Below are positions 1-63,389 of a DNA stretch of 64,000 nucleotides, piece after piece. Location of the stretch: assembly GCA_041648595.1 (NCBI GenBank), contig JBAZOQ010000001.1:14002-78001 (forward strand), given 5' to 3'. The notes under the pieces were generated by a model. That model saw nothing but the letters and a program-made list of their open reading frames with translations. It was not told the origin of the DNA and made no database searches. This DNA is from Minisyncoccota bacterium (lineage in GTDB: Bacteria > Patescibacteriota > Minisyncoccia > Phycocordibacterales > UBA9973). A program made the position numbers and the translations under genes. How positions within the stretch are numbered: position 1 is the stretch's first letter; each line of letters opens with the position of its first letter.

Positions 1-1
1 G

Positions 2-3000
2 ACAGATAATGTAGGTGGTTCAGGAATTGGTTCTGTTAAAATTTCTATAAAAGATACAGATGTATCTGTCGCCAAATGGTATAGTGGGACATCTTTTACA
101 GATGTTACAGAAACATATATTACTACTACAGGTACAAATACTTGGAGTTTTAATTCTTCAACAGTACCATTAGTGATAGATCATACTTATTTAGTTCATA
201 TCAAATCTATAGATAGTGCATTAAATGAAGAGAGCCCTGTTCAAGCTCTTTCATTTAAATTTGTAAATTCTCCTCCAGTAGTTTCTAATGTGACAGCTTC
301 TATGGCTTTAAGTGGAGTAGTGACAGTTGGATATGATGTCACAGATGTTGAATCAACGCAGACTACAAATTCTTTATTTTATACAATTGGAGCTACGCTT
401 AATGGAACAATAACAAGTGGAGCAACATCACTTACAGTTTCTGATGCGACACTTTTTGGAGCTTCTGGAACTATTTTGATAGATGATGAGATGATATCTT
501 ATGCAAGTAAGTCGGGAAATATTTTACAGACTCTTACAAGAGGAGCAAATAGTACTACAGCATTTGCACATACTACAGGAGCTTTAATTTATTTAAATGC
601 AGCTTCTGCTACAGGTACTGGTATTGGATTGTCTAATAAAGGAACTGGAAAAGTAATAACTTGGACAGCTAGAACAGATGCAGATGGATATGAAAATGCA
701 ACTGAAACAATTAAGGTTGTTGCGAATGATGGATCTGCTGGATCTATGATAGGGTCACTCGCTTCTTCTGCATTTATTTTTGATGCAAAGAAACCTACTG
801 CGGTAGTCACATTTGATGCTGGAAGTGCAGGTGTGGTAGATAGTGCAACTATTACCATCCCAATGCCAACAGATATTTCAGCGGTAGAATATTTAATTAC
901 TGATGGTGCTTCAGAGGCAGATGGAACGACGAGTGGATGGACAAGTATTACGACTAGCACGACTATACCTTGGACATTTGATTCTGGTATTGAAATAAAG
1001 AATTTAAAATATCAATATAGAGATGCTTATGGAAACACGACAACAGAAACTATAACATCTACTTTGTCTCCAATTCTTGCAAGTTCATTTTTAGTGCAAG
1101 ATACTTCTAACATAACTATTCCATCTTATGATATGTATATCGGGTGGAAAGCATTAGTAGATACTACAGGTTTCTCTTCTTATAAATTAGAATATGCGAC
1201 ATCTACTAATAATGTGACTTATGGATCTTATTCACCAGTTGGTGATGGAATGTCTAATCCTGTCACAAATTATTATGTTCATAGAAATTTGGATTCTACA
1301 AAGTTTTATAGATATCGTCTTGGAGTAACAGGAACTGATGGAAATACTTCTATTCGTGCAGGATCATTTACTACAGCTAAACCAGATGGAGTTCAAAATT
1401 ATGGTGAAGGAGGAGGTGGAAGTGTGGCTACTGCATCAAAAGTAGAAAATGTTGTTCCAACGCAAAATGCTACAACTAAAGATGTCACTGTTACTTATAG
1501 ATTGACAGATACTTCTTTGGCTCAAAAAGTTAGTGTTTCTTATCAAGCTCGAGTATTTTATAATATAGGAATTACTTTACCATCTAATGCATATTCTGGA
1601 GGAAATCTTACAGTATCTGATGCGTCTAAGTTAAAAGATTCTGGATATATTCAAATAAATAATGAAGTAATACAGTATACAGGTAAGACTGGAAATATTT
1701 TGACTGGTCTTACTCGTGGTACATGGCCTACAGCACCTCGTGCAACAAGACAGAATCTTACATTCTTTGCTGGTACTCCGGTATGGGTGATGGCGACTAC
1801 GACGACACCTACAGCTATCACAAATACTACAATATCTACAGGACAAGATGGATCAATAACATGGTCTACATATGGTGAACCTTCTCTCGCGGGAAGTTCA
1901 TATACTAACGTTGGAATAAGAGTGTTAGTTCACGACAATCAAGATCCTGGAGTTGGTCCTATTTCAAGTCAAAATGACTATTCAGAAAATGGAATATTAA
2001 ATACTTTTGATTTAACTGTACCGACTATTACGTTTGATGCAACAAGTTCTACTGGAGCTGAAAGTGTAACCTCTGTAAACTTTGGATTAACTCTTGCTAG
2101 AGCGTATCCAGTTAATTCTACCGTCAACTATACAGTCACTGGTACAGCTACCGGAGGCGGAGTAGACTATACTCTTGCAAATGGAACTGCAACAATTACT
2201 GCTGGAAGTACAACTACTAATATCACAGCAACAATTGTTAATGATATTATTTATGAATCAAGTGAGACAATAATAGTTACAATTTCAAGTCCAACAAACG
2301 CAATATTGGGAGCTAATACAGTTCATACATATACAATCACAGACAATGACACTGTTTCAACAATTGCATTTAATACAACTTCATCTAACGGCCTAGAAAG
2401 TGTAACGGCAGTAACTATTCCAGTTACTATTTCAGCAGTTTCAGGAGCAGATACAACCGTTGATTATACAGTTACTGGTACAGCCACAGGAAGTGGAGCA
2501 GACTATACATTAGCAAATGGAACTGCAACAATTACAGCAGGAAGTACTACTACAAATATTTCTTTAGTTATTGTAGACGATGCTATTAATGAACTTAATG
2601 AAACAATTATTGTTACATTATCTAATCCAAGTGGTGCAACTCTCGGAACAAATACAGCTCATACTTATACAATCACAGACAACGATACTGCATCAACAAT
2701 TGCATTCACTGCAGCAACATTAAATGGTTTAGAAAGTGTAACAGCAGTAACTATTCCAGTTTCTCTTTCTCTTGCTTCATATCAAGATATTACTGTTAAC
2801 TATGCAGTCACAGGTGGAACAGCCACTGGAAGTGGAACAGACTATACTCTTGCATCAGGGGTAGCAACAATTACTGCAGGACAAACTACAACAAATATTT
2901 CAGTAACGGTTGTAAATGATTCTTTGCAAGAATCTAGCGAAACTATTATTGTAACTTTAGCTACTCCTTCAAATGCAACTTTGGGAACAAATACAGCTCA

Positions 3001-6000
3001 TACATATACAATTACCGATGATGATAGTACTCCAACAATTGCATTTACCACAACCTCAGGAATTGGAGCAGAAAGCGTAACTCCAGTAAGTATTGGAGTA
3101 ACTCTTTCAGCAGTTTCTGGATTAGATACAACTGTTGCCTATACTCTAACAGGTACAGCCACAGGAAGTGGAACAGACTATACATTAGCAAGTGGAACAG
3201 CAACAATTACAGCTGGACAAACCACTACAAGTATTTCTCTGGTTATTATAGACGATATACTTAGTGAAGTTAGCGAAACTGCTATCTTAACATTATCCAG
3301 TTCAACTAATTCAACTCTCGGAGTTAACACAACTTATACCTATACAATTACAGACAACGACACTGATCCTACAGTAGCATTCACGGCAGCTTCTTCAAAT
3401 GGATTAGAAAGTGTAACTCCAGTAAATCTTGAAGTTTCTATAGCAGCAGCTTCTTCTAAAAACATAACAGTTGGTTATGCAGTTACCGGAGGTACTGCAA
3501 CTTCAGGTGTTGACTATATTCTTGCTTCAGGAACAGCAACAATTACTGCAGGACAAACTACAACAAATATTTCACTCACTGTCATAAATGATACTCTTAA
3601 GGAATCAAATGAAACTGTAATTGTAACTTTATCTACTCCTTCAAATGCAACTTTGGGAACAAATACAGCTCATACTTATACCATTACAGATAATGACACT
3701 TTTCCAACATTAAGTTTCAACGCTACAACAAGTCAAAGTAATGAAGACGTTAACACTGTAGATATTCCTGTATCTATTACATCTATATATCCAGAAAATG
3801 TAACTTTCTCTTATGCTGTTACAAGTGGTACAGCTACAGGTGGATCAGTTGATTATTTACTAGAAAATGGAACAGGTACAATTACAGCAGGTCAAACATC
3901 TACAAATATTCATATAACTGTTTTTGATGATGAGATTTCTGAAAATACAGAAACAATCGTAATAACTATTTCAAATCCAACGAATGCTACTCTTGGAGCT
4001 AATACAATTCATGCTTACTCTATCTTAGATAATGAAATAGCTGTTACAGCAGCAAGTGGTAGTAATATTAAATCAACAAGTGCTCGTATTGTTTGGACGA
4101 CAGCTGATTACACTGATAGTACTATAGAATATGGTACAGTAGCTCCTCCTGGTACAGAAGGGTCTTTGCCATATACTTTGTCTAAGTCAAATTCAGAGAA
4201 AGTATTATCTCATAATATTTATTTAGGAAATTTAACTCCTTCTACAACTTATTATTATAAATTAACTTCAGTTAATTTAGCAGAAGAAACAACAATTTAC
4301 GAATCAGAATTTACAACTACTCCTGGACCTATTATTAGTAATGTTACATCAAGTGGTGCTACTGATATAGGAGTTGTTATCACTTGGACTTCAAATATTC
4401 CTACAACATCTTATGTTAGTTATTCTACTGATGTAGACTTAGCAAGTCCTACATTATCTTCTGTTTCAGAAGAATTAGTTACCGAACATACTGTTACTTT
4501 AACAGGATTAAATTCTGATAGCACTTATTATTATTTAGTGTATGGAGTAGATGCAGATACAAATGTAGGTGAAGATGCAAATGGTGGCAGTTATTATAAT
4601 TTTGCAACAGGGGCAGATCAAACAGCTCCCGTGATTACAGGAGAGATTACTACACCTATCATTACTGCGACTCAAGCTGCTATTTTATGGACAACTAATG
4701 AAGTTGCAAATGGTAAGGTTATGTATGGAACAAGTGCTGATACTTATGATGATGAAACAGATTTGATATCAACACCATTATTAAATCACATAGCGATCAT
4801 TAGTGATTTAACAGCTACGACAAAATATTATTATGTAGTTGTGTCAGCTGATGCAAACGGTAATACCGTAACATCTGATGAAAAAGAATTAACAACAGCT
4901 GAAGTTGAGCAAGTAATTGTAAGTAGCGGTGGAGGTGGTGGAGGTGGAATTATTGGTGTTGCTCAAGAAATTTATAATCTTTTGCTTGCTGAGAATCAAA
5001 AATATATAGCTAAATTTGGTAGTGATACTAATATCCCGGTTATTACAAATATTAAAGTTGATAGTATTACTGCTTTTGGTGCAATTATTTCGTATGAAAC
5101 AAGTGAAGATACAATATCATTTATTGAATATGGTAAAGATACAGATTACGGTTTTATAGCAGCAGATAAAAATTGGTCAAAAAATCATATAATAAAGGTG
5201 AAAGGATTAAATTTAGGTACAGAATATGATTTTAAAATTAGTGCAATGGATAGAACAAATGATTTTGGTTTTTCTGATAATCAGACCTTCACCACTAAAT
5301 TCTTAAGTGAAGATCTTGCTGAATTAAAAAAGATAGAAAACATAGAACAATTCCAAGCAGAAATAGAAGCAACGATAGAATCAATACTTCCATCTCTTGT
5401 TCCACCATTTATTGATAAACCAGTCGTATCTGATATTACAGAGAGTAGTGCAACAGTAACATTCCGTACAAACATTAAATCTTACCCAGTATTAAGTTAT
5501 ACAACTGATGCTAATTATGATAAAACAAAGACTAATCCATATGATGGAGAAATGTCAGATACTTCAGAAAAAAGTGTTTCTCATACAATGTCTCTTATTG
5601 GATTAAAATCTAATACAAAATATCACGTAATGGCAAAAGCATATTCCTTACCTCAAGTTATTGGTAAATCGGAAGACTTTACATTTATAACAGCTGCTTC
5701 AAAGATTCAGGGATCTATTGTTGATGTTAAGAAAGATATGTTTACAGTTATGTGGACTACAGATGAACCTACTTCTTCTATTATTGAATACAAAAATATG
5801 AAAACTGGAAGAATTTCTCGTACTATTGATGATGTTCAAAATAATTCTCATTCAGTAAGAATTGAAAATCTTTCTCCTGGAACTTCTTATCAGGTTAATA
5901 TTTCAGGTATTAACCAAAAAGGTAATACAGTAGAAAGTGGTTCTTCGTTAAATGTTAAGACATCTACCGACAATACTGCACCAGAAATTTTTAATTTGAA

Positions 6001-6355
6001 AGTAAATAGTACTCTTCTTTCTGGACGAACAGATAAAGTTCAAACAATAATTTCTTGGCAGACTGATGAACCTTCGACTTCTTCTGTTTATTATGAAGAA
6101 GGTTCTGGGTCTTTAGAAAAAGCACTTTCGAACAAACAAGAGGAAGTAGAATTTACAAAAAATCACGTTGTTATATTGGCTTCTCTTAAACCAGGAACTG
6201 TTTATAGATTTACAGTAGAATCGATGGATGATGCAAACAATGTATCTAAACCACCAATTCGTACAATAATTACTCCTAAAAAGATAGAATCAATCGTTGA
6301 TGTTATATTTAAAAACTTTAATGAAACATTTAATTTTATAAATAATGTTAGATAG
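2..6355 (+). CDS. Very large secreted or cell-surface repeat protein (5' partial; open from window start). N-terminal region has duplicated SGNIL.TLTRG modules. Six tandem Calx-beta-like repeats of about 110 aa ending in ..HTYTITDNDT. A poly-Gly linker is followed by multiple FN3 / purple-acid-phosphatase-N-like repeats (..TSYVSYSTD..TYYY..).
   Basis: Frame is open from nt 2 with no stop before 173 (the track start is a GTG at 173). Six roughly 330-bp DNA-level tandem repeats at 2021-4035 translate to Calx-beta-like units. Downstream beta-sandwich repeats have the W..TD and YYY motifs typical of FN3/PKD-like domains. Stop at 6355. Confidence 0.8.
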   Translation, partial: TDNVGGSGIGSVKISIKDTDVSVAKWYSGTSFTDVTETYITTTGTNTWSFNSSTVPLVIDHTYLVHIKSIDSALNEESPVQALSFKFVNSPPVVSNVTASMALSGVVTVGYDVTDVESTQTTNSLFYTIGATLNGTITSGATSLTVSDATLFGASGTILIDDEMISYASKSGNILQTLTRGANSTTAFAHTTGALIYLNAASATGTGIGLSNKGTGKVITWTARTDADGYENATETIKVVANDGSAGSMIGSLASSAFIFDAKKPTAVVTFDAGSAGVVDSATITIPMPTDISAVEYLITDGASEADGTTSGWTSITTSTTIPWTFDSGIEIKNLKYQYRDAYGNTTTETITSTLSPILASSFLVQDTSNITIPSYDMYIGWKALVDTTGFSSYKLEYATSTNNVTYGSYSPVGDGMSNPVTNYYVHRNLDSTKFYRYRLGVTGTDGNTSIRAGSFTTAKPDGVQNYGEGGGGSVATASKVENVVPTQNATTKDVTVTYRLTDTSLAQKVSVSYQARVFYNIGITLPSNAYSGGNLTVSDASKLKDSGYIQINNEVIQYTGKTGNILTGLTRGTWPTAPRATRQNLTFFAGTPVWVMATTTTPTAITNTTISTGQDGSITWSTYGEPSLAGSSYTNVGIRVLVHDNQDPGVGPISSQNDYSENGILNTFDLTVPTITFDATSSTGAESVTSVNFGLTLARAYPVNSTVNYTVTGTATGGGVDYTLANGTATITAGSTTTNITATIVNDIIYESSETIIVTISSPTNAILGANTVHTYTITDNDTVSTIAFNTTSSNGLESVTAVTIPVTISAVSGADTTVDYTVTGTATGSGADYTLANGTATITAGSTTTNISLVIVDDAINELNETIIVTLSNPSGATLGTNTAHTYTITDNDTASTIAFTAATLNGLESVTAVTIPVSLSLASYQDITVNYAVTGGTATGSGTDYTLASGVATITAGQTTTNISVTVVNDSLQESSETIIVTLATPSNATLGTNTAHTYTITDDDSTPTIAFTTTSGIGAESVTPVSIGVTLSAVSGLDTTVAYTLTGTATGSGTDYTLASGTATITAGQTTTSISLVIIDDILSEVSETAILTLSSSTNSTLGVNTTYTYTITDNDTDPTVAFTAASSNGLESVTPVNLEVSIAAASSKNITVGYAVTGGTATSGVDYILASGTATITAGQTTTNISLTVINDTLKESNETVIVTLSTPSNATLGTNTAHTYTITDNDTFPTLSFNATTSQSNEDVNTVDIPVSITSIYPENVTFSYAVTSGTATGGSVDYLLENGTGTITAGQTSTNIHITVFDDEISENTETIVITISNPTNATLGANTIHAYSILDNEIAVTAASGSNIKSTSARIVWTTADYTDSTIEYGTVAPPGTEGSLPYTLSKSNSEKVLSHNIYLGNLTPSTTYYYKLTSVNLAEETTIYESEFTTTPGPIISNVTSSGATDIGVVITWTSNIPTTSYVSYSTDVDLASPTLSSVSEELVTEHTVTLTGLNSDSTYYYLVYGVDADTNVGEDANGGSYYNFATGADQTAPVITGEITTPIITATQAAILWTTNEVANGKVMYGTSADTYDDETDLISTPLLNHIAIISDLTATTKYYYVVVSADANGNTVTSDEKELTTAEVEQVIVSSGGGGGGGIIGVAQEIYNLLLAENQKYIAKFGSDTNIPVITNIKVDSITAFGAIISYETSEDTISFIEYGKDTDYGFIAADKNWSKNHIIKVKGLNLGTEYDFKISAMDRTNDFGFSDNQTFTTKFLSEDLAELKKIENIEQFQAEIEATIESILPSLVPPFIDKPVVSDITESSATVTFRTNIKSYPVLSYTTDANYDKTKTNPYDGEMSDTSEKSVSHTMSLIGLKSNTKYHVMAKAYSLPQVIGKSEDFTFITAASKIQGSIVDVKKDMFTVMWTTDEPTSSIIEYKNMKTGRISRTIDDVQNNSHSVRIENLSPGTSYQVNISGINQKGNTVESGSSLNVKTSTDNTAPEIFNLKVNSTLLSGRTDKVQTIISWQTDEPSTSSVYYEEGSGSLEKALSNKQEEVEFTKNHVVILASLKPGTVYRFTVESMDDANNVSKPPIRTIITPKKIESIVDVIFKNFNETFNFINNVR
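2021..4035 (+). repeat. Six tandem coding repeats of about 330 bp (Calx-beta-like units) inside the giant surface protein gene.
   Basis: Each repeat translates to P(T/S)IAF..(S/T)..G.ESVT.V.I.V.....TTV.Y.VTG.ATG.G.DYTLA.GTATITAG.TTT.I.....DD.....E..I.TLS.P..ATLG.NT.HTYTITDNDT. High nucleotide identity between units is visible by eye. Confidence 0.85.
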
Positions 6356-6423
6356 AGTTAAATTATAAAAAATATTAATCTTTTAAAGATTATTACTTCA
6401 TATGTTATAATCAAATTATTGTT

Positions 6424-6858
6424 ATGAATGTTAAGCAAAATGTAAGAAAAATCTTATTAATTGATAGTAATGAAATATTACGTATCTATTTCCGTGATAT
6501 ATTTTGGATACACGGTAATAATAATCTCTATGAAGTTGAGGTTGTTTCTTCTTTCGAAGAAGCAGAAAAAAAATTAGAATATAAGGATTCTAAACCTGAT
6601 ATTATTTTTTTGGATGTAGTAATGTCAATTAAAGGAGCTAAAAATAGTATTGAAAATGAAATAAATCGATCTGTATCTTTTATTAAAAAAATAAAGAATG
6701 ATAAAACTTTATCAGATATAAAGATAATTATTTATTCTGACCAGAAAGAAAAAGCAATAAAGGATAAAGTTGCTGAATTAGGCATTGAAGGTTATTTGAT
6801 AAAAGGAGAATTAATGCCAAAAGAGATAATAAAATTTGTTGATAAAATTTATGAGTGA
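6424..6858 (+). CDS. Stand-alone CheY-like receiver domain protein. The phospho-acceptor Asp context FLDVVM and the conserved Lys (YLIKG) are present. The N-terminal acidic pocket is degenerate (LLIDSNE instead of DD). There is an insertion after the D loop.
   Basis: REC-domain motif pattern in the translation. Stop TGA at 6856-6858 overlaps the next ORF. Confidence 0.55.
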   Translation: MNVKQNVRKILLIDSNEILRIYFRDIFWIHGNNNLYEVEVVSSFEEAEKKLEYKDSKPDIIFLDVVMSIKGAKNSIENEINRSVSFIKKIKNDKTLSDIKIIIYSDQKEKAIKDKVAELGIEGYLIKGELMPKEIIKFVDKIYE

Positions 6859-8200
6859 AATAATAAAAACTGAAAATTTAAATTTATGGTATGACAAGGG
6901 GAAACCAACAGAGGTTCATTCTCTTAAGGATGTAAATATAAGCATAGACAAAGGTGACTATGTATCTTTTTTCGGACCATCTGGTTGTGGTAAAACCAGT
7001 ATACTTTATGCTATTTCTGGTATTGATCGTTTTCAAGAAGGAAAGGTTTTTATCAATAATCGTGATATATCAGGACTTACAAATCAAGAACTCGCAATTT
7101 TTAGACAGACTGGTATAGGTATTGTTTTTCAGCAGTTTAATCTAGTACCATCTCTGACTGTTTTAAAAAATGTTGCTTTGCCGATGCTTTTTGTGGGTAT
7201 CTCTTCTGAGAAAGCTGATATTGAAGCACGTAAACTTATTGAAAGATTAGATATTCTTGATTATATTGATCGTTATCCTTTTGAACTTTCTGGTGGACAA
7301 CAACAAAGAGTTGGTATTGCTCGCGCACTTGCGAATGACCCACCTATAATTATAGCCGACGAGCCATTAGGAAACCTTGATTCTGTTAATGCAAAAAAAG
7401 TATTAAATTTCTTGAAAGAATTAAATGAAAAAGATGGACGAACTGTGATAATGGTTACACACGAAGCTTGGAGTTTGCGTGACGTTAAAACTATTTTTCA
7501 TATGAAAGATAGTGCTGTTACTGATATTCAAAAAGTAAAAAATACTACTACAGCTGATTCAATATCTAAACATCTAAATGAACAACTTTCTTATATGTCC
7601 TCATCTGATGATAAAAAAGAAGAATATCCTGAAGAGAAAATATCAGCTCGTATTTTAGCCAACTTTTTACTCCGTGGATATTCTATGGATGAGATTAGAC
7701 GTTTTGAATCTTTTGTAAATCAAAGATTTGAAAATAAAATAGATAAAAAAGAATTTCATAAATTTGCTAATATGCCATTTAAAGATGGTGGTGTTGGTCT
7801 TTGGAAGAAAAAAGCTGAAAGAGTGACACAATATTTAGAAGAAATTTTGGAAGAAAAAAAGAACGTTGAACATATATATGGTGTTTTAGAGAAAAATCCA
7901 GAAATGTCTATTTTTGATGAAATCCTCAGCATACGTAATTGGGTATTGGAAGGTTATACTGGTAAAATAACACCAACTCAAGCGGCAGCACTTGATCAAG
8001 TTATTTCTGATAGAATTAGGAATTTTATTCCAGCAGATAAAGTTGTTGAATTATTAGATCTTTCAAAAAATAAATTTGGTGTTGGTCTATCTTTCCGTGC
8101 TGCTCAAACAATATCTGAAAAATTAGAATTATTGTTTAGTGAAGATAATACAGAAATTAATACTGAAACTGATAGCAAAGATTTTGAAAAAAAGTTATAA
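6851..8200 (+). CDS. ABC transporter ATP-binding protein (MacB/LolD/FtsE-like nucleotide-binding domain) with a roughly 220-aa C-terminal extension of unknown function.
   Basis: Walker A GPSGCGKTS, ABC signature LSGGQQQRV, Walker B IIIADEPLGNLD, H-loop VTHE. ATG at 6851 is preferred over the TTG at 6836 listed in the track. Confidence 0.8.
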   Translation: MSEIIKTENLNLWYDKGKPTEVHSLKDVNISIDKGDYVSFFGPSGCGKTSILYAISGIDRFQEGKVFINNRDISGLTNQELAIFRQTGIGIVFQQFNLVPSLTVLKNVALPMLFVGISSEKADIEARKLIERLDILDYIDRYPFELSGGQQQRVGIARALANDPPIIIADEPLGNLDSVNAKKVLNFLKELNEKDGRTVIMVTHEAWSLRDVKTIFHMKDSAVTDIQKVKNTTTADSISKHLNEQLSYMSSSDDKKEEYPEEKISARILANFLLRGYSMDEIRRFESFVNQRFENKIDKKEFHKFANMPFKDGGVGLWKKKAERVTQYLEEILEEKKNVEHIYGVLEKNPEMSIFDEILSIRNWVLEGYTGKITPTQAAALDQVISDRIRNFIPADKVVELLDLSKNKFGVGLSFRAAQTISEKLELLFSEDNTEINTETDSKDFEKKL

Positions 8201-9469: not shown

Positions 9470-9589
9470 CCCGTTAGAGATTAAATAGTTATTTTTTCGG
9501 GATTTATTTAAGTTAGCTCTTGTAACTAATTTTATTATTAAATATTAATTTAAGGTACGGAAATCTAAAGATTTCCTATCTCTAACGGG
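9470..9589 (+). mobile_element. MITE-like TIR element, family 1 copy a (120 bp). TIRs are CCCGTTAGAGATT / ATCTCTAACGGG. It is flanked by direct repeat ATGGAT (9464-9469 and 9590-9595), and the 3' copy is the lepA start codon.
   Basis: Inverted termini and flanking 6-bp direct repeat were read directly. The interior is AT-rich and non-coding (MDPVRD followed by a stop if read from the 5' ATG). Confidence 0.6.
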
Positions 9590-12154: not shown

Positions 12155-12221
12155 TCCCGTTAGAAATTCACTTAACGGGAGTCGAAAATATATTAAAAAT
12201 TAATTTTAAATTTCTAACGGG
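12155..12221 (+). mobile_element. MITE-like TIR element, family 1 copy b (67 bp). TIRs are TCCCGTTAGAAATT / AATTTCTAACGGG. It is flanked by direct repeat ATGAA (12150-12154 and 12222-12226), and the 3' copy is the start codon of the dehydrogenase gene.
   Basis: Read directly. Confidence 0.6.
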
Positions 12222-19222: not shown

Positions 19223-20575
19223 TTACTTCATTAAGATCATTTTTTTTGTCTGGCTGAAGTTGCCAGATTGAATTTTGTAGATGTACATTCCGCTAGCAAG
19301 CTGAGAAGCATCAAACTTGGTTTCATAACTTCCAGCAGGTTTTTCTTCATTAACTAACTCAACAACTTCTTTGCCGAGCATATCGTAAACTTTTAGAGTT
19401 ACGAAGCCGGATGCAGGAAGTGCATAACTAATTGTTGTAGAAGGATTAAACGGATTTGGATAATTCTGCGACAGATCAAATTTTGTTGGTACAGAAGTTA
19501 CTTCTTCGGTTACATCTGTAACTCCTGAAGGTTTAAGAATAATTGGTTTTCCATTATTCAAAGTTCCATTCACTTCTATTTCTGATAATTTTGCTCCATT
19601 AATAATAACATAAGAACCTTTATCAAGAGCATCATTTGTTGCAAAAGAGATTTTTGTAACGCCATCTTTTGTGTTTACAGAATTCAGTGTTTTGGATAGT
19701 GAACCTTTTTCAATCCAAGCTCCTTTTGGGAGCTTAAGATTAAGATCTCCATTAGTTAAGCTGTCAGAGAAGATTAGTTTAATAGTATTATTTGACAGTT
19801 GTTGTAGTGCGACTTCACCTTTAGTGGTATTAATACCAAGGCCACAACCTCCTTCATAGTAGTATCCATTTTCAACTGGATAGTAACTAATCACATTAAA
19901 ATGTTTCCAAGTTCTATACAAAGCATCTTGGCTAGATACTTGTAGGTCGCCGGTTACATCGTAATAGGCTAAACTTTTTTGATCAATTACCATGATTTTC
20001 CCTGTAGAAAAATCAAGAATTCTAAAAATATCCAGTGTTCCATTATCTCCACCCCACACTCCATCGTTAAATACGGTTATTTTTGCCGAACTTCCAGAAG
20101 CATAGTATTGAGTATGTTCTAGATTACTTTTTGTGAAAATAGTTTGTCCAAAAATAATATATTCTTCCGTTTTATTAGCCATATCTGGATATTGATTAGC
20201 GATTACACTAATTCTTACAGGAGTAAAATAGCTGTGAAAAATTCCATCACTGAATAATCCCCAATGAATAGTGTTGTGATTTGTTGTTGGGTCATAAGAT
20301 AATAATGGGTATGAATAATTATCATTCCAATACCATTCATTCAACGTAACTGTGTTTCGACTTTCAAAGTCAAAACTTAATCTGTCTGAAGAAAATATTG
20401 TCGATTCAACACCGACTATACTATCTCCAGAAAAAATGACAGGTACCTGATAATGACCACCGGCTACCATCAGTGCATTGTTAATTTGCAAATAACTATC
20501 AGATGATGGTAACGTTTGTGCAAAAATGCCCATAGAAAACAAAATGAACAATGAAAGAAAAAGTAACTTTTTCAT
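19223..20575 (-). CDS. Secreted protein with N-terminal signal peptide and C-terminal Por/T9SS-type sorting domain (secretion system C-terminal sorting domain).
   Basis: C-terminus NYPNPFNPSTTISYALPASGFVTLKVYDMLGKEVVELVNEEKPAGSYETKFDASQLASGMYIYKIQSGNFSQTKKMILMK matches the T9SS C-terminal-domain consensus. N-terminus is MKKLLFLSLFILFSMGIFAQ. Confidence 0.7.
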   Translation of the reverse strand: MKKLLFLSLFILFSMGIFAQTLPSSDSYLQINNALMVAGGHYQVPVIFSGDSIVGVESTIFSSDRLSFDFESRNTVTLNEWYWNDNYSYPLLSYDPTTNHNTIHWGLFSDGIFHSYFTPVRISVIANQYPDMANKTEEYIIFGQTIFTKSNLEHTQYYASGSSAKITVFNDGVWGGDNGTLDIFRILDFSTGKIMVIDQKSLAYYDVTGDLQVSSQDALYRTWKHFNVISYYPVENGYYYEGGCGLGINTTKGEVALQQLSNNTIKLIFSDSLTNGDLNLKLPKGAWIEKGSLSKTLNSVNTKDGVTKISFATNDALDKGSYVIINGAKLSEIEVNGTLNNGKPIILKPSGVTDVTEEVTSVPTKFDLSQNYPNPFNPSTTISYALPASGFVTLKVYDMLGKEVVELVNEEKPAGSYETKFDASQLASGMYIYKIQSGNFSQTKKMILMK

Positions 20576-21123: not shown

Positions 21124-22074
21124 GTGGGAGCTATGAAAAAAATATTTAAAATAATCTTTTCTGTAATTATAATAAGTGTTACAGTTTTTTTATTTCGTAC
21201 AGAATTTGAACAAATTTTTTTTGATTTACAAAATAAATATTTTCCATGTAGTAAACCTATAACATATTCTTTAGGTTCTTTTGATGAAAAATTTGGTATA
21301 TCAAAAGAAGAATTTCTTAAGGTTGTAAATACTGCAGAAATAATATGGGAAAAGTCTATTGATAAGAAGCTTTTTATTTATGAATCAAACGGTGCTGGTG
21401 CTTTAAAAATAAATTTAATTTATGACACAAGACAAGAAGCTACACAGAAATTAAAAGATATAGGTATAACAGTAGATGACAATAGAGCATCTTTTAATAG
21501 CTTAAAGTTGAAATATGACGCTATGCAATCTGATTATTTGAAGTTTAAAAATGCATTTGAATCGGAAATTGTGTTATTTAAAAACCGTCAAAAAGCTTAC
21601 GAAGAAGAAGTTGCGTATTTAAATAAAAATGGTGGTGCATCTAAAGATATTTATAATCGTTTAAATAAAGAAAAAAAATATCTTGATCAAAAATTTTTAG
21701 AAATAAATAAATTGCAGGCAGAACTTAACTTAAAAGCAGATGATGTCAATGCGACAGTTATTGTCTTAAATCGTCTTGTTTCTTCTTTAAATATAGATGT
21801 AAAAAAATTTAATACAATTGGAGATGAACTTGGTGGAGAATTTGAAGAAGGTACTTATAAAGAAAATTCAACAGGCAAAGAAATTGACATATATCAATTT
21901 AACGATGAAGGGAAGTTGGCAAGAGTTTTAACACATGAATTTGGACATGCCCTGGGACTCCAGCATATAGAAAATCCTAAAGCTGTTATGTATCGTTTTA
22001 ATAATGGTATAAATGAAACATTAATGATAGAAGACATTCTTGCTCTAAAAGAGTATTGTGATTTACCTATATAA
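21124..22074 (+). CDS. Membrane-anchored zinc metalloprotease of the metzincin/matrixin type (HEFGHALGLQH plus Met-turn).
   Basis: HExxHxxGxxH motif followed by AVMY. N-terminal TM helix and central coiled coil. Confidence 0.6.
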   Translation: MGAMKKIFKIIFSVIIISVTVFLFRTEFEQIFFDLQNKYFPCSKPITYSLGSFDEKFGISKEEFLKVVNTAEIIWEKSIDKKLFIYESNGAGALKINLIYDTRQEATQKLKDIGITVDDNRASFNSLKLKYDAMQSDYLKFKNAFESEIVLFKNRQKAYEEEVAYLNKNGGASKDIYNRLNKEKKYLDQKFLEINKLQAELNLKADDVNATVIVLNRLVSSLNIDVKKFNTIGDELGGEFEEGTYKENSTGKEIDIYQFNDEGKLARVLTHEFGHALGLQHIENPKAVMYRFNNGINETLMIEDILALKEYCDLPI

Positions 22075-63290: not shown

Positions 63291-63389
63291 TCCCGTTAGA
63301 AGTTAACTTTCGGGAATAAATTATAAAAATTAATTAAGTTTATCTAATATATTAAAAAAGTTAAGTAAATTAGTATAACTTCTAACGGG
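63291..63389 (+). mobile_element. MITE-like TIR element, family 1 copy f (99 bp). TIRs are TCCCGTTAGAAGTTAAC / ATAACTTCTAACGGG. Flanked by direct repeat ATGAGT (63285-63290, containing the atpH TGA stop, and 63390-63395, the atpA start).
   Basis: Read directly. TAGTATAAC lies 10 nt before the ATG. Confidence 0.6.

Follow-up and report, generated by a model that had tools for sequence, protein, structure and literature searches.

A giant Sec-exported repeat protein beside a type VII ABC cassette, a candidate attachment fibre of Paceibacteria

The stretch of DNA analysed here (the window, 64,000 nucleotides of contig JBAZOQ010000001.1, assembly GCA_041648595.1, from a Minisyncoccota bacterium) opens inside a gene for a giant repeat protein, which is followed on the same strand by genes for a receiver protein and for the ATPase and permease of an ATP-binding cassette (ABC) system (Table 1). 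One frame runs without interruption from window base 2 to the stop codon at 6353-6355, giving 2117 aa, and the missing 5' end is supplied by an independent ENA assembly (L001), which is 100% identical over window positions 1-7000 and reaches 3.5 kb upstream of the window. The full gene lies there at L001:1467-9932 and encodes 2821 aa as called. Its true start is probably one of three ATGs immediately 5' of a classical signal peptide, and the full-length protein would measure about 2,730-2,820 aa.

Table 1. Features of the giant gene and of the adjoining cassette, in window coordinates
Feature	Position	Strand	Remarks
Giant surface-protein open reading frame	2-6355	+	5'-truncated at window edge; 2117 aa inside window
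C-terminal part of Ig-like beta-sandwich	2-259	+	by inspection only; no Pfam match
Module 1: FN3-like sandwich with inserted six-stranded beta-barrel	260-820	+	barrel ~422-598, motif SGTILIDDEMISYASKSGNILQTLTRG
Two further beta-sandwich-like domains between the modules	821-1402	+	no Pfam assignment; then GEGGGGS linker 1403-1423
Module 2: second FN3-plus-barrel copy	1421-2041	+	barrel ~1604-1792; 37% identical to module 1
Six tandem Calx-beta units, 336/339 bp	2009-2344, 2345-2680, 2681-3019, 3020-3355, 3356-3691, 3692-4030	+	
Three FN3/purple-acid-phosphatase-N (PAP-N)-like domains	4031-4927	+	
Gly7 run	4928-4948	+	within linker ~4901-5029; lineage-specific insertion
Fourth FN3/PAP-N-like domain	5030-5302	+	
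Probable helical linker LSEDLAELKKIENIEQFQAEIEATIESILPSL	5303-5422	+	helicity judged from sequence only
FN3/PAP-N-like domains 5-7	5423-6271	+	best Pfam fn3 stretch aa 1906-1979
Amphipathic C-terminal tail TP(K/R)..ESIVDVIFKNF(N/D)ETFNF	6272-6352	+	nearly invariant in orthologues
Promoter-like site with extended -10, TGTTATAAT	6382-6411 (-10 at 6403-6411)	+	12 nt before next ATG
Stand-alone response-regulator receiver protein, 144 aa	6424-6858	+	stop overlaps ABC gene start
ABC ATPase, LolD/FtsE/MacB class, 449 aa	6851-8200	+	
Type VII ABC permease, 403 aa	8211-9422	+	FtsX-type domain with four transmembrane segments (TM); MacB periplasmic core between TM1 and TM2

The 5' end recovered from L001 encodes a Sec signal peptide (MIQVVSFILIFSFISFSYNPNLAIA, with the cleavage site before ADV). 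Since eight of ten relatives inspected show the same arrangement of a basic n-region, a hydrophobic core and an AxA-type site, the N terminus is probably cleaved rather than used as an anchor. Behind it, upstream of the window, Pfam recognised Lcl_C (DUF1566), CHB_HEX_C_1 (chitobiase-C) and Fn3_assoc. Thr and Ser together make up 28% of the 2821 aa, and there are 4 Cys. An earlier reading of the window by itself (the original prediction) had proposed a giant surface protein of a small-genome organism; the signal peptide found beyond the window edge, and kept in orthologues, bears out the secretion, and the organism is a small-genome bacterium of the Candidate Phyla Radiation (CPR) whose relatives are named Candidatus Nomurabacteria or Paceibacteria.

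Fourteen related genome loci, all from metagenome-assembled genomes, were compared. Six carry the names Candidatus Nomurabacteria, Paceibacteria or Paceibacterota, another six are labelled "bacterium" or "uncultured bacterium", and the remaining two bear other names, a Burkholderiales bin and a Thermoplasmata bin; the closest relative is Ca. Nomurabacteria GW2011_GWE1_32_28, with 85% aa identity in the duplicated module described below. Conservation is uneven along the protein. The N-terminal region is poorly conserved and distant members bear other heads, such as a Kelch propeller (P0040) or NHL repeats (P0073), the number of Calx units per family member ranges from 0 to 8, and the C-terminal ~770 aa are kept in nearly all members.

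The units of the Calx-beta array were delimited on a recurrent YTITD motif. Pfam Calx-beta (PF03160) scored 202.4 bits against a gathering cut-off of 27 (E 2e-60, six stretches), and in NCBIfam and PDB sequence searches with the giant protein only the Calx-beta region of Na+/Ca2+ exchangers (NCX1) was matched. An acidic motif (N/D)D...E..E is present in all six units and ITD(N/D)D in five of them; we take these to be the positions that bind Ca2+ in the Ca2+-binding domain CBD1 of NCX1, and their conservation suggests that the stalk may bind Ca2+ and be stiffened by it. The units resemble NCX1 CBD1/CBD2 in their significant Pfam and PDB sequence matches and in the acidic motifs, whereas the exchanger domains belong to a cytoplasmic regulatory loop and the units described here would be arrayed in tandem outside the cell, as part of a bacterial fibre.

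Tandem Repeats Finder reported a period of 336 bp across 2127-3700 (~70% matches, score ~1130), and five to seven in-register copies were returned by the repeat finder in this array. Six DNA repeats of about 330 bp had been predicted at 2021-4035; their number stands, with the extent now measured as 2009-4030. The accompanying claim, that the units are similar enough at the nucleotide level to recombine, is not supported. Unit pairs are 61-78% identical in DNA and 44-76% in protein, and no exact run common to a pair of units exceeds 43 nt (units 3 and 5), the next longest being 26, 23 and 21 nt. Because units 2/4 and 3/5 are the most alike (77-78% DNA identity), the array probably grew through an old duplication of a two-unit block. 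Judged by these comparisons the repeats are old and diverged, not near-identical, and the array itself is real and far beyond chance.

Two alternative accounts of the array should be weighed at this point. It might be a contingency locus, in which repeats still recombine and thereby alter the fibre length between cells or strains. Copy number does vary among related species (0, 2, 3, 5 and 6), and the 43-nt run and the two most similar pairs also speak for it; however, most pairs are only 61-70% identical and have exact runs of 9-20 nt in common, DNA identity follows protein identity and so gives no sign of recent homogenisation, and the layout is the same in two 100%-identical assemblies and in a strain with 96% nucleotide identity (L002), which is collinear from 2594 on and has no whole-unit indel. 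We regard this account as very unlikely. Still less credible, to the point of being negligible, is the notion that the array is an assembly artefact, i.e. a collapse or expansion. The data are short-read metagenome assemblies and the L002 contig begins within the array, but the independent L001 assembly is identical across all of it and carries the same six units, the reading frame is unbroken through every unit, and a divergence of 22-39% between units would be readily resolved by assembly at k=141. The identity of L001 and the collinearity of L002 make a collapse or expansion unlikely.

Seven FN3/PAP-N-like domains, delimited by inspection and family alignment, follow 3' of the array. Pfam supported them with Pur_ac_phosph_N (77.1 bits against a cut-off of 30, E 1.5e-21, six stretches) and fn3 (71.3 bits against 25, E 8e-20, one stretch), so that the domain calls made earlier from the letters, Calx-beta as well as FN3/PAP-N, are confirmed. 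The Gly7 run, on the other hand, is present where a poly-Gly hinge had been announced, but the linker that holds it falls in alignment columns gapped in at least half of 41 aligned relatives; this rules out a conserved functional hinge and marks the run as a lineage-specific insertion.

The C-terminal end of the protein varies little. Its last ~27 residues, TIITP(K/R)..ESIVDVIFKNF(N/D)ETFNFI.NV, are almost invariant in orthologues and recognisable in distant members, and when windows are ranked by helical hydrophobic moment across the whole protein, the top eight all fall in this tail. A word-indexed protein search with the C-terminal 217 aa yielded nothing beyond short fragments at contig ends, labelled hypothetical or FN3 proteins, in an index that seems not to recover the giant proteins. 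No transmembrane-like segment was detected in the window part (best 19-aa Kyte-Doolittle mean 1.42). Searches for familiar anchoring or export signals were negative throughout: the 2821-aa protein has no LPxTG motif and its C terminus is the amphipathic tail; there is no GGxGxD (repeats-in-toxin, RTX) motif and no HemolysinCabind match in Pfam; Por_Secre_tail, the mark of the type IX secretion system (T9SS), was not matched in the giant protein; and neither an S-layer homology (SLH) domain nor another S-layer family was matched. Anchoring by LPXTG/sortase, by RTX and a type I secretion system (T1SS) or by T9SS thus failed in the motif and profile hidden Markov model tests.

These results bear on the possibility that the protein belongs to a structural, S-layer-like coat covering the cell and is not a specific attachment fibre. 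The original prediction had named an adhesin or S-layer-like protein, and a coat would agree with a very large, Thr/Ser-rich, all-beta protein built of generic sandwich domains and conserved across Paceibacteria in a housekeeping neighbourhood. Yet besides the missing SLH and S-layer matches nothing points to self-assembly, and the varying heads (Lcl_C, Kelch, NHL) and stalk length form the pattern of binding proteins, not of lattice formers. We therefore hold a coat to be improbable: the adhesin-like half of the earlier proposal is the best reading, while its S-layer-like half has gained no positive evidence.

The N-terminal part of the protein inside the window contains a module that had been noted earlier as a duplicated SGNIL.TLTRG motif of unrecognised kind. 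The duplication is confirmed by self-comparison (190-207 aa present twice, 37% aa identity), and the identity of the module can now be assigned. It has no Pfam match but does match PHROG families whose annotations read tail fibre, baseplate wedge and virion structural protein. An exhaustive profile search with the module against 1.84 billion representatives returned 1863 proteins at E<=1e-3, in two tiers. Of the 150 best-scoring representatives (50%-identity clusters), about 52 are giant proteins in which the module is complete, and it occurs twice in the closest 16; many other matched proteins share only the central ~60 aa, in up to 24 stretches per protein in the exhaustive search and up to 12 in a local re-scan.

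AlphaFold2 modelling of module 1 with a 48-sequence alignment (pLDDT 95.6, pTM 0.90) predicted a beta-sandwich with six short strands inserted at residues 57-113. Foldseek against the PDB gave nothing significant for the composite module, and phmmer of module 2 found no PDB sequence; the module profile, in turn, matched a phage Chi protein among PDB sequences (E 3.6e-5, on the insert), and BFVD yielded 44 viral matches at E<=1e-3, several of ~72 residues at 1.0-1.6 Å. The module accordingly has a fibronectin-like fold with a small six-stranded beta-barrel inserted in it, and is homologous to the FN3-plus-barrel unit of siphophage baseplate-hub and tip proteins; it represents a cellular copy of a part from which phage tail tips are built and is not a new fold. 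A close known system is the hub/tip attachment protein J (JBD30, 8rk3, domains V and VI; phage Chi minor tail protein, 8vjh_A), although identity to siphophage hub proteins is only 15-20%, the unit is duplicated here within a chromosomally encoded cellular surface protein, and the rest of the hub is absent.

From the PHROG, PDB and BFVD matches one might suppose that the whole gene is phage-derived, for instance a prophage tail-fibre or host-recognition gene. The surroundings do not correspond to a phage tail gene cluster: the neighbours are the chromosomal housekeeping genes murJ, lepA, divIC, enolase and PPDK, the locus is syntenic across many Paceibacteria genomes, and no further phage genes were seen nearby. 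Moreover, what it has in common with phage proteins is limited to the ~60-aa barrel and the FN3 domain that hosts it. A phage origin of the gene is in our opinion highly improbable.

No terminator-like site was found 3' of the giant gene, and a receiver and an ABC pair follow. In Pfam the permease matched FtsX and MacB_PCD and the ATPase ABC_tran, with LolD, FtsE and MacB as the best NCBIfam matches; a four-TM permease whose TM1 and TM2 are separated by a large extracytoplasmic domain, combined with an ATPase of LolD/FtsE/MacB class, places the pair among type VII ABC systems. It is not FtsEX proper, as FtsE reached 185.5 bits against a cut-off of 264.85 and FtsX 32-33 bits against cut-offs of 225-255. 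MacB is the best match of the permease, and no equivalog cut-off was reached by either protein.

Linkage of this cassette to the giant gene recurs across the family. ATPase and permease lie 3' of the giant gene in the window and L001 and in 11 of 11 related loci with downstream DNA, with the receiver between them and the giant gene in 9 of the 11. Among the linkage counts the distant cases carry the information. In distant relatives with unrelated neighbourhoods, the cassette stands 3' of the giant gene in three of four, with stop and start codons overlapping or abutting, and when the search starts from the permease, three of three homologues (70-76% identical) are preceded by a giant Calx/FN3 gene, and two of these loci have different surroundings. 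Overall, the cassette is kept in 17 of 18 informative loci. Identity across related loci amounts to 64-89% for the permease and 67-91% for the ATPase, above most of the fibre.

Could the giant protein, then, work outside the cell as the partner of a division or cell-wall machine of FtsEX type and serve envelope remodelling, comparable to PcsB, EnvC, CwlO or RipC? Its tight linkage to an ABC pair of FtsE/FtsX/MacB class would fit, as would division and envelope genes close by (divIC and murJ here, ftsK and rodZ in L021, ftsA in L024) and the short probable helical segment at 5303-5422. Against this, no CHAP, LytM, NlpC/P60 or amidase domain appeared in any Pfam scan, the ATPase and permease stay far below the FtsE/FtsX cut-offs with MacB as the permease's best match, and variable heads with a stalk of 0-8 Calx units are hard to square with a divisome regulator. 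We consider a division partner to be quite unlikely.

It should be added that the cassette and its surroundings show some variation of their own. The ATPase has a C-terminal extension of ~220 aa (window 7540-8200) that matches no family; in relatives the same gene encodes 245, 431, 457, 479, 726 or 775 aa, one of them with faint Ig-like matches, and by this length comparison the ATPase bears a variable accessory domain. Two loci carry an extra CarboxypepD_reg-like gene of 612-620 aa between the giant gene and the cassette (L025:6242-8080 and L026:6207-8069), and this gene might encode another part of the system. A small MerR/HTH_17 regulator gene (L001:810-1076, minus strand) precedes the giant gene and recurs upstream in seven related loci (52-85% identity); its product is a candidate regulator of the fibre gene.

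Given the Sec signal, the extracellular-type beta-sandwiches, the variable heads and stalk, the conserved base and tail and the ABC linkage, an attachment or contact fibre is the most economical reading of the locus, and on balance we lean towards such a fibre being held or operated by the ABC module. The fibre part is well supported, and the ABC link is what we infer from gene order only. The product would be a Sec-exported modular extracellular fibre of ~2,700 residues in a Nomurabacteria-like member of Paceibacteria (CPR), ordered as signal peptide, variable head, two FN3-plus-barrel modules, six Calx-beta units, seven FN3/PAP-N domains and amphipathic helix. We propose that the variable head is distal and would contact the partner cell or surface, that the Calx-beta/FN3 array would set the reach of the fibre, and that the conserved C-terminal block would be its cell-proximal base. 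By analogy with FtsEX-PcsB/EnvC mechanotransmission, that base could be held, loaded or mechanically operated by the receiver and the type VII ABC cassette. The proximal placement of the C-terminal block, and the role of the ABC pair in holding or operating it, are suggested because no LPXTG, RTX, T9SS or SLH signal is present; adhesion, fibre orientation and physical coupling to the ABC pair are likewise proposals.

Several points weigh against this proposal. The amphipathic tail might itself associate with the membrane, with no need of a transporter; no ligand-binding domain is found within the window itself; the orientation with the head distal and the tail proximal follows that of other adhesins; and Ca2+ binding is suggested by motif conservation alone. 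One family member (P0108) has no cassette beside its giant gene, the cassette has a promoter-like site of its own, and synteny in the closest relatives is wider (lepA and divIC in L009 and L027). As close relatives are syntenic over this larger region, part of the linkage count is not independent.

A bolder extension would treat the fibre, the receiver and the MacB/FtsX-type ABC pair as one previously undescribed surface machine of Paceibacteria. The amphipathic helix and FN3 base would dock on the permease ectodomain, and receiver-gated ATP hydrolysis would do the mechanical work of holding, extending, releasing or re-setting the fibre. This combination of docking and ATP-driven operation is doubtful, and we offer it as a tentative idea. 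If it were true, a type VII ABC mechanotransmitter would serve cell-cell attachment and not the control of cell-wall hydrolases, and the ABC module would replace the sortase, T1SS and T9SS anchoring lacking in these bacteria.

Other observations concern the start regions of genes in and around the window. Palindromic elements of 48-120 nt, similar to miniature inverted-repeat transposable elements, lie at window positions 9470-9589, 12156-12221 and 63292-63389 and at L001:1497-1544, with terminal inverted repeats CCCGTTAGAR/YTCTAACGGG and flanking direct repeats of 5-6 bp (ATGGAT, ATGAA, ATGAGT, ATAAA). They were seen in this species only (L001-L003), and for the two sites checked (lepA and 2-hydroxyacid dehydrogenase) the orthologous positions are empty in the relatives L009 and L027. 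Three of the four copies are inserted 5-6 nt into the coding sequence with the start codon duplicated, and because of this duplication the 3' arm of the element abuts the real ATG. The L001 copy, outside the window, lies in the 5' leader of the giant gene and is predicted to fold at -44 kcal/mol (z -5.3); no Rfam family was matched by this GC-rich hairpin. The empty sites of relatives resemble leaderless starts (TGnTATAAT, 7 nt, ATG), and it is such leaderless-type starts that the palindromic elements have struck. At window 6403-6426, L009:9195-9215, L027:11225-11250 and L027:13565-13585 an extended -10 (TGnTATAAT or TATATT) stands only 7-12 nt ahead of the ATG and a Shine-Dalgarno sequence is not evident, which suggests that leaderless or near-leaderless mRNAs may be common in the lineage.

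Two further genes of the window encode proteins of interest. A 450-aa protein with a Por_Secre_tail domain (E 4.9e-15; window 19223-20575, minus strand) has a counterpart at the same position in a relative (L027:20334-21212, minus strand). To our knowledge type IX secretion is a system of the Bacteroidota/FCB group that is not expected in CPR bacteria. A few kb downstream, among tRNA genes, lies a gene (21124-22074, plus strand) whose 316-aa product bears a zinc-protease motif of matrixin type (Peptidase_M10) and may be another secreted factor.

CPR bacteria, or Patescibacteria, are thought to live attached to other cells, and apart from a few cultivated Saccharibacteria we know of no description of their attachment hardware. 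In Patescibacteria, host contact has been proposed as the role of large surface proteins that bear FN3 and adhesin repeats, among them Absconditicoccaceae proteins of >1,500 aa in which FN3, concanavalin A and integrin domains occur along with adhesin repeats stabilised by Ca2+ (PMC13059738). The protein described here shares with them the CPR host, giant size, signal peptide, FN3 and Ca2+-type repeats and the proposed contact with a host, and differs in its class, Paceibacteria, and in its Calx-beta units, PAP-N-type FN3 domains and phage-hub-like FN3-plus-barrel module. Giant T1SS adhesins (LapA, SiiE, MpIBP, FrhA) are similar in having a tandem stalk of Ca2+-binding beta-sandwiches, a ligand-binding end and an adjacent ABC gene. 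In contrast to them, the fibre lacks RTX nonapeptides and the T1SS C-terminal signal and bears an N-terminal Sec signal, and its ABC pair is of MacB/FtsX type VII, with no gene for a membrane-fusion or outer-membrane partner.

Type VII ABC mechanotransmitters include FtsEX with PcsB, EnvC, CwlO or RipC, MacB and LolCDE (PMC6355983, PMC7668044, PMC5985334). The cassette agrees with them in the FtsX permease of four TM, the large extracytoplasmic domain, the LolD/FtsE/MacB ATPase and the pairing with a gene for an extracellular protein, but it is paired here with an FN3/Calx fibre of 2,000-5,000 aa that lacks a hydrolase domain, a receiver gene is usually inserted, no MacA- or TolC-like gene is present and no equivalog cut-off is reached. 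None of the literature searched describes a giant protein linked to a MacB/FtsX ABC pair in CPR bacteria, or a defined C-terminal tail of this kind.

The protein itself is of an expected kind, a giant surface protein that a CPR bacterium has assembled from repeats and known domains, and its array is not unusual. Features of the family, namely the phage-hub-like module, the invariant tail, the failed anchor tests and the near-obligate ABC cassette, are unmatched by the adhesin classes tested and did not turn up in the literature searched. For Paceibacteria the family offers a candidate attachment fibre that is secreted, whose head is exchangeable, whose Calx-beta stalk can differ in length and whose base is conserved. 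If the tie to the ABC pair is functional, the mechanotransmission principle of FtsEX and MacB would extend to surface fibres, and the locus would offer an experimentally addressable handle on the host contact of CPR bacteria.

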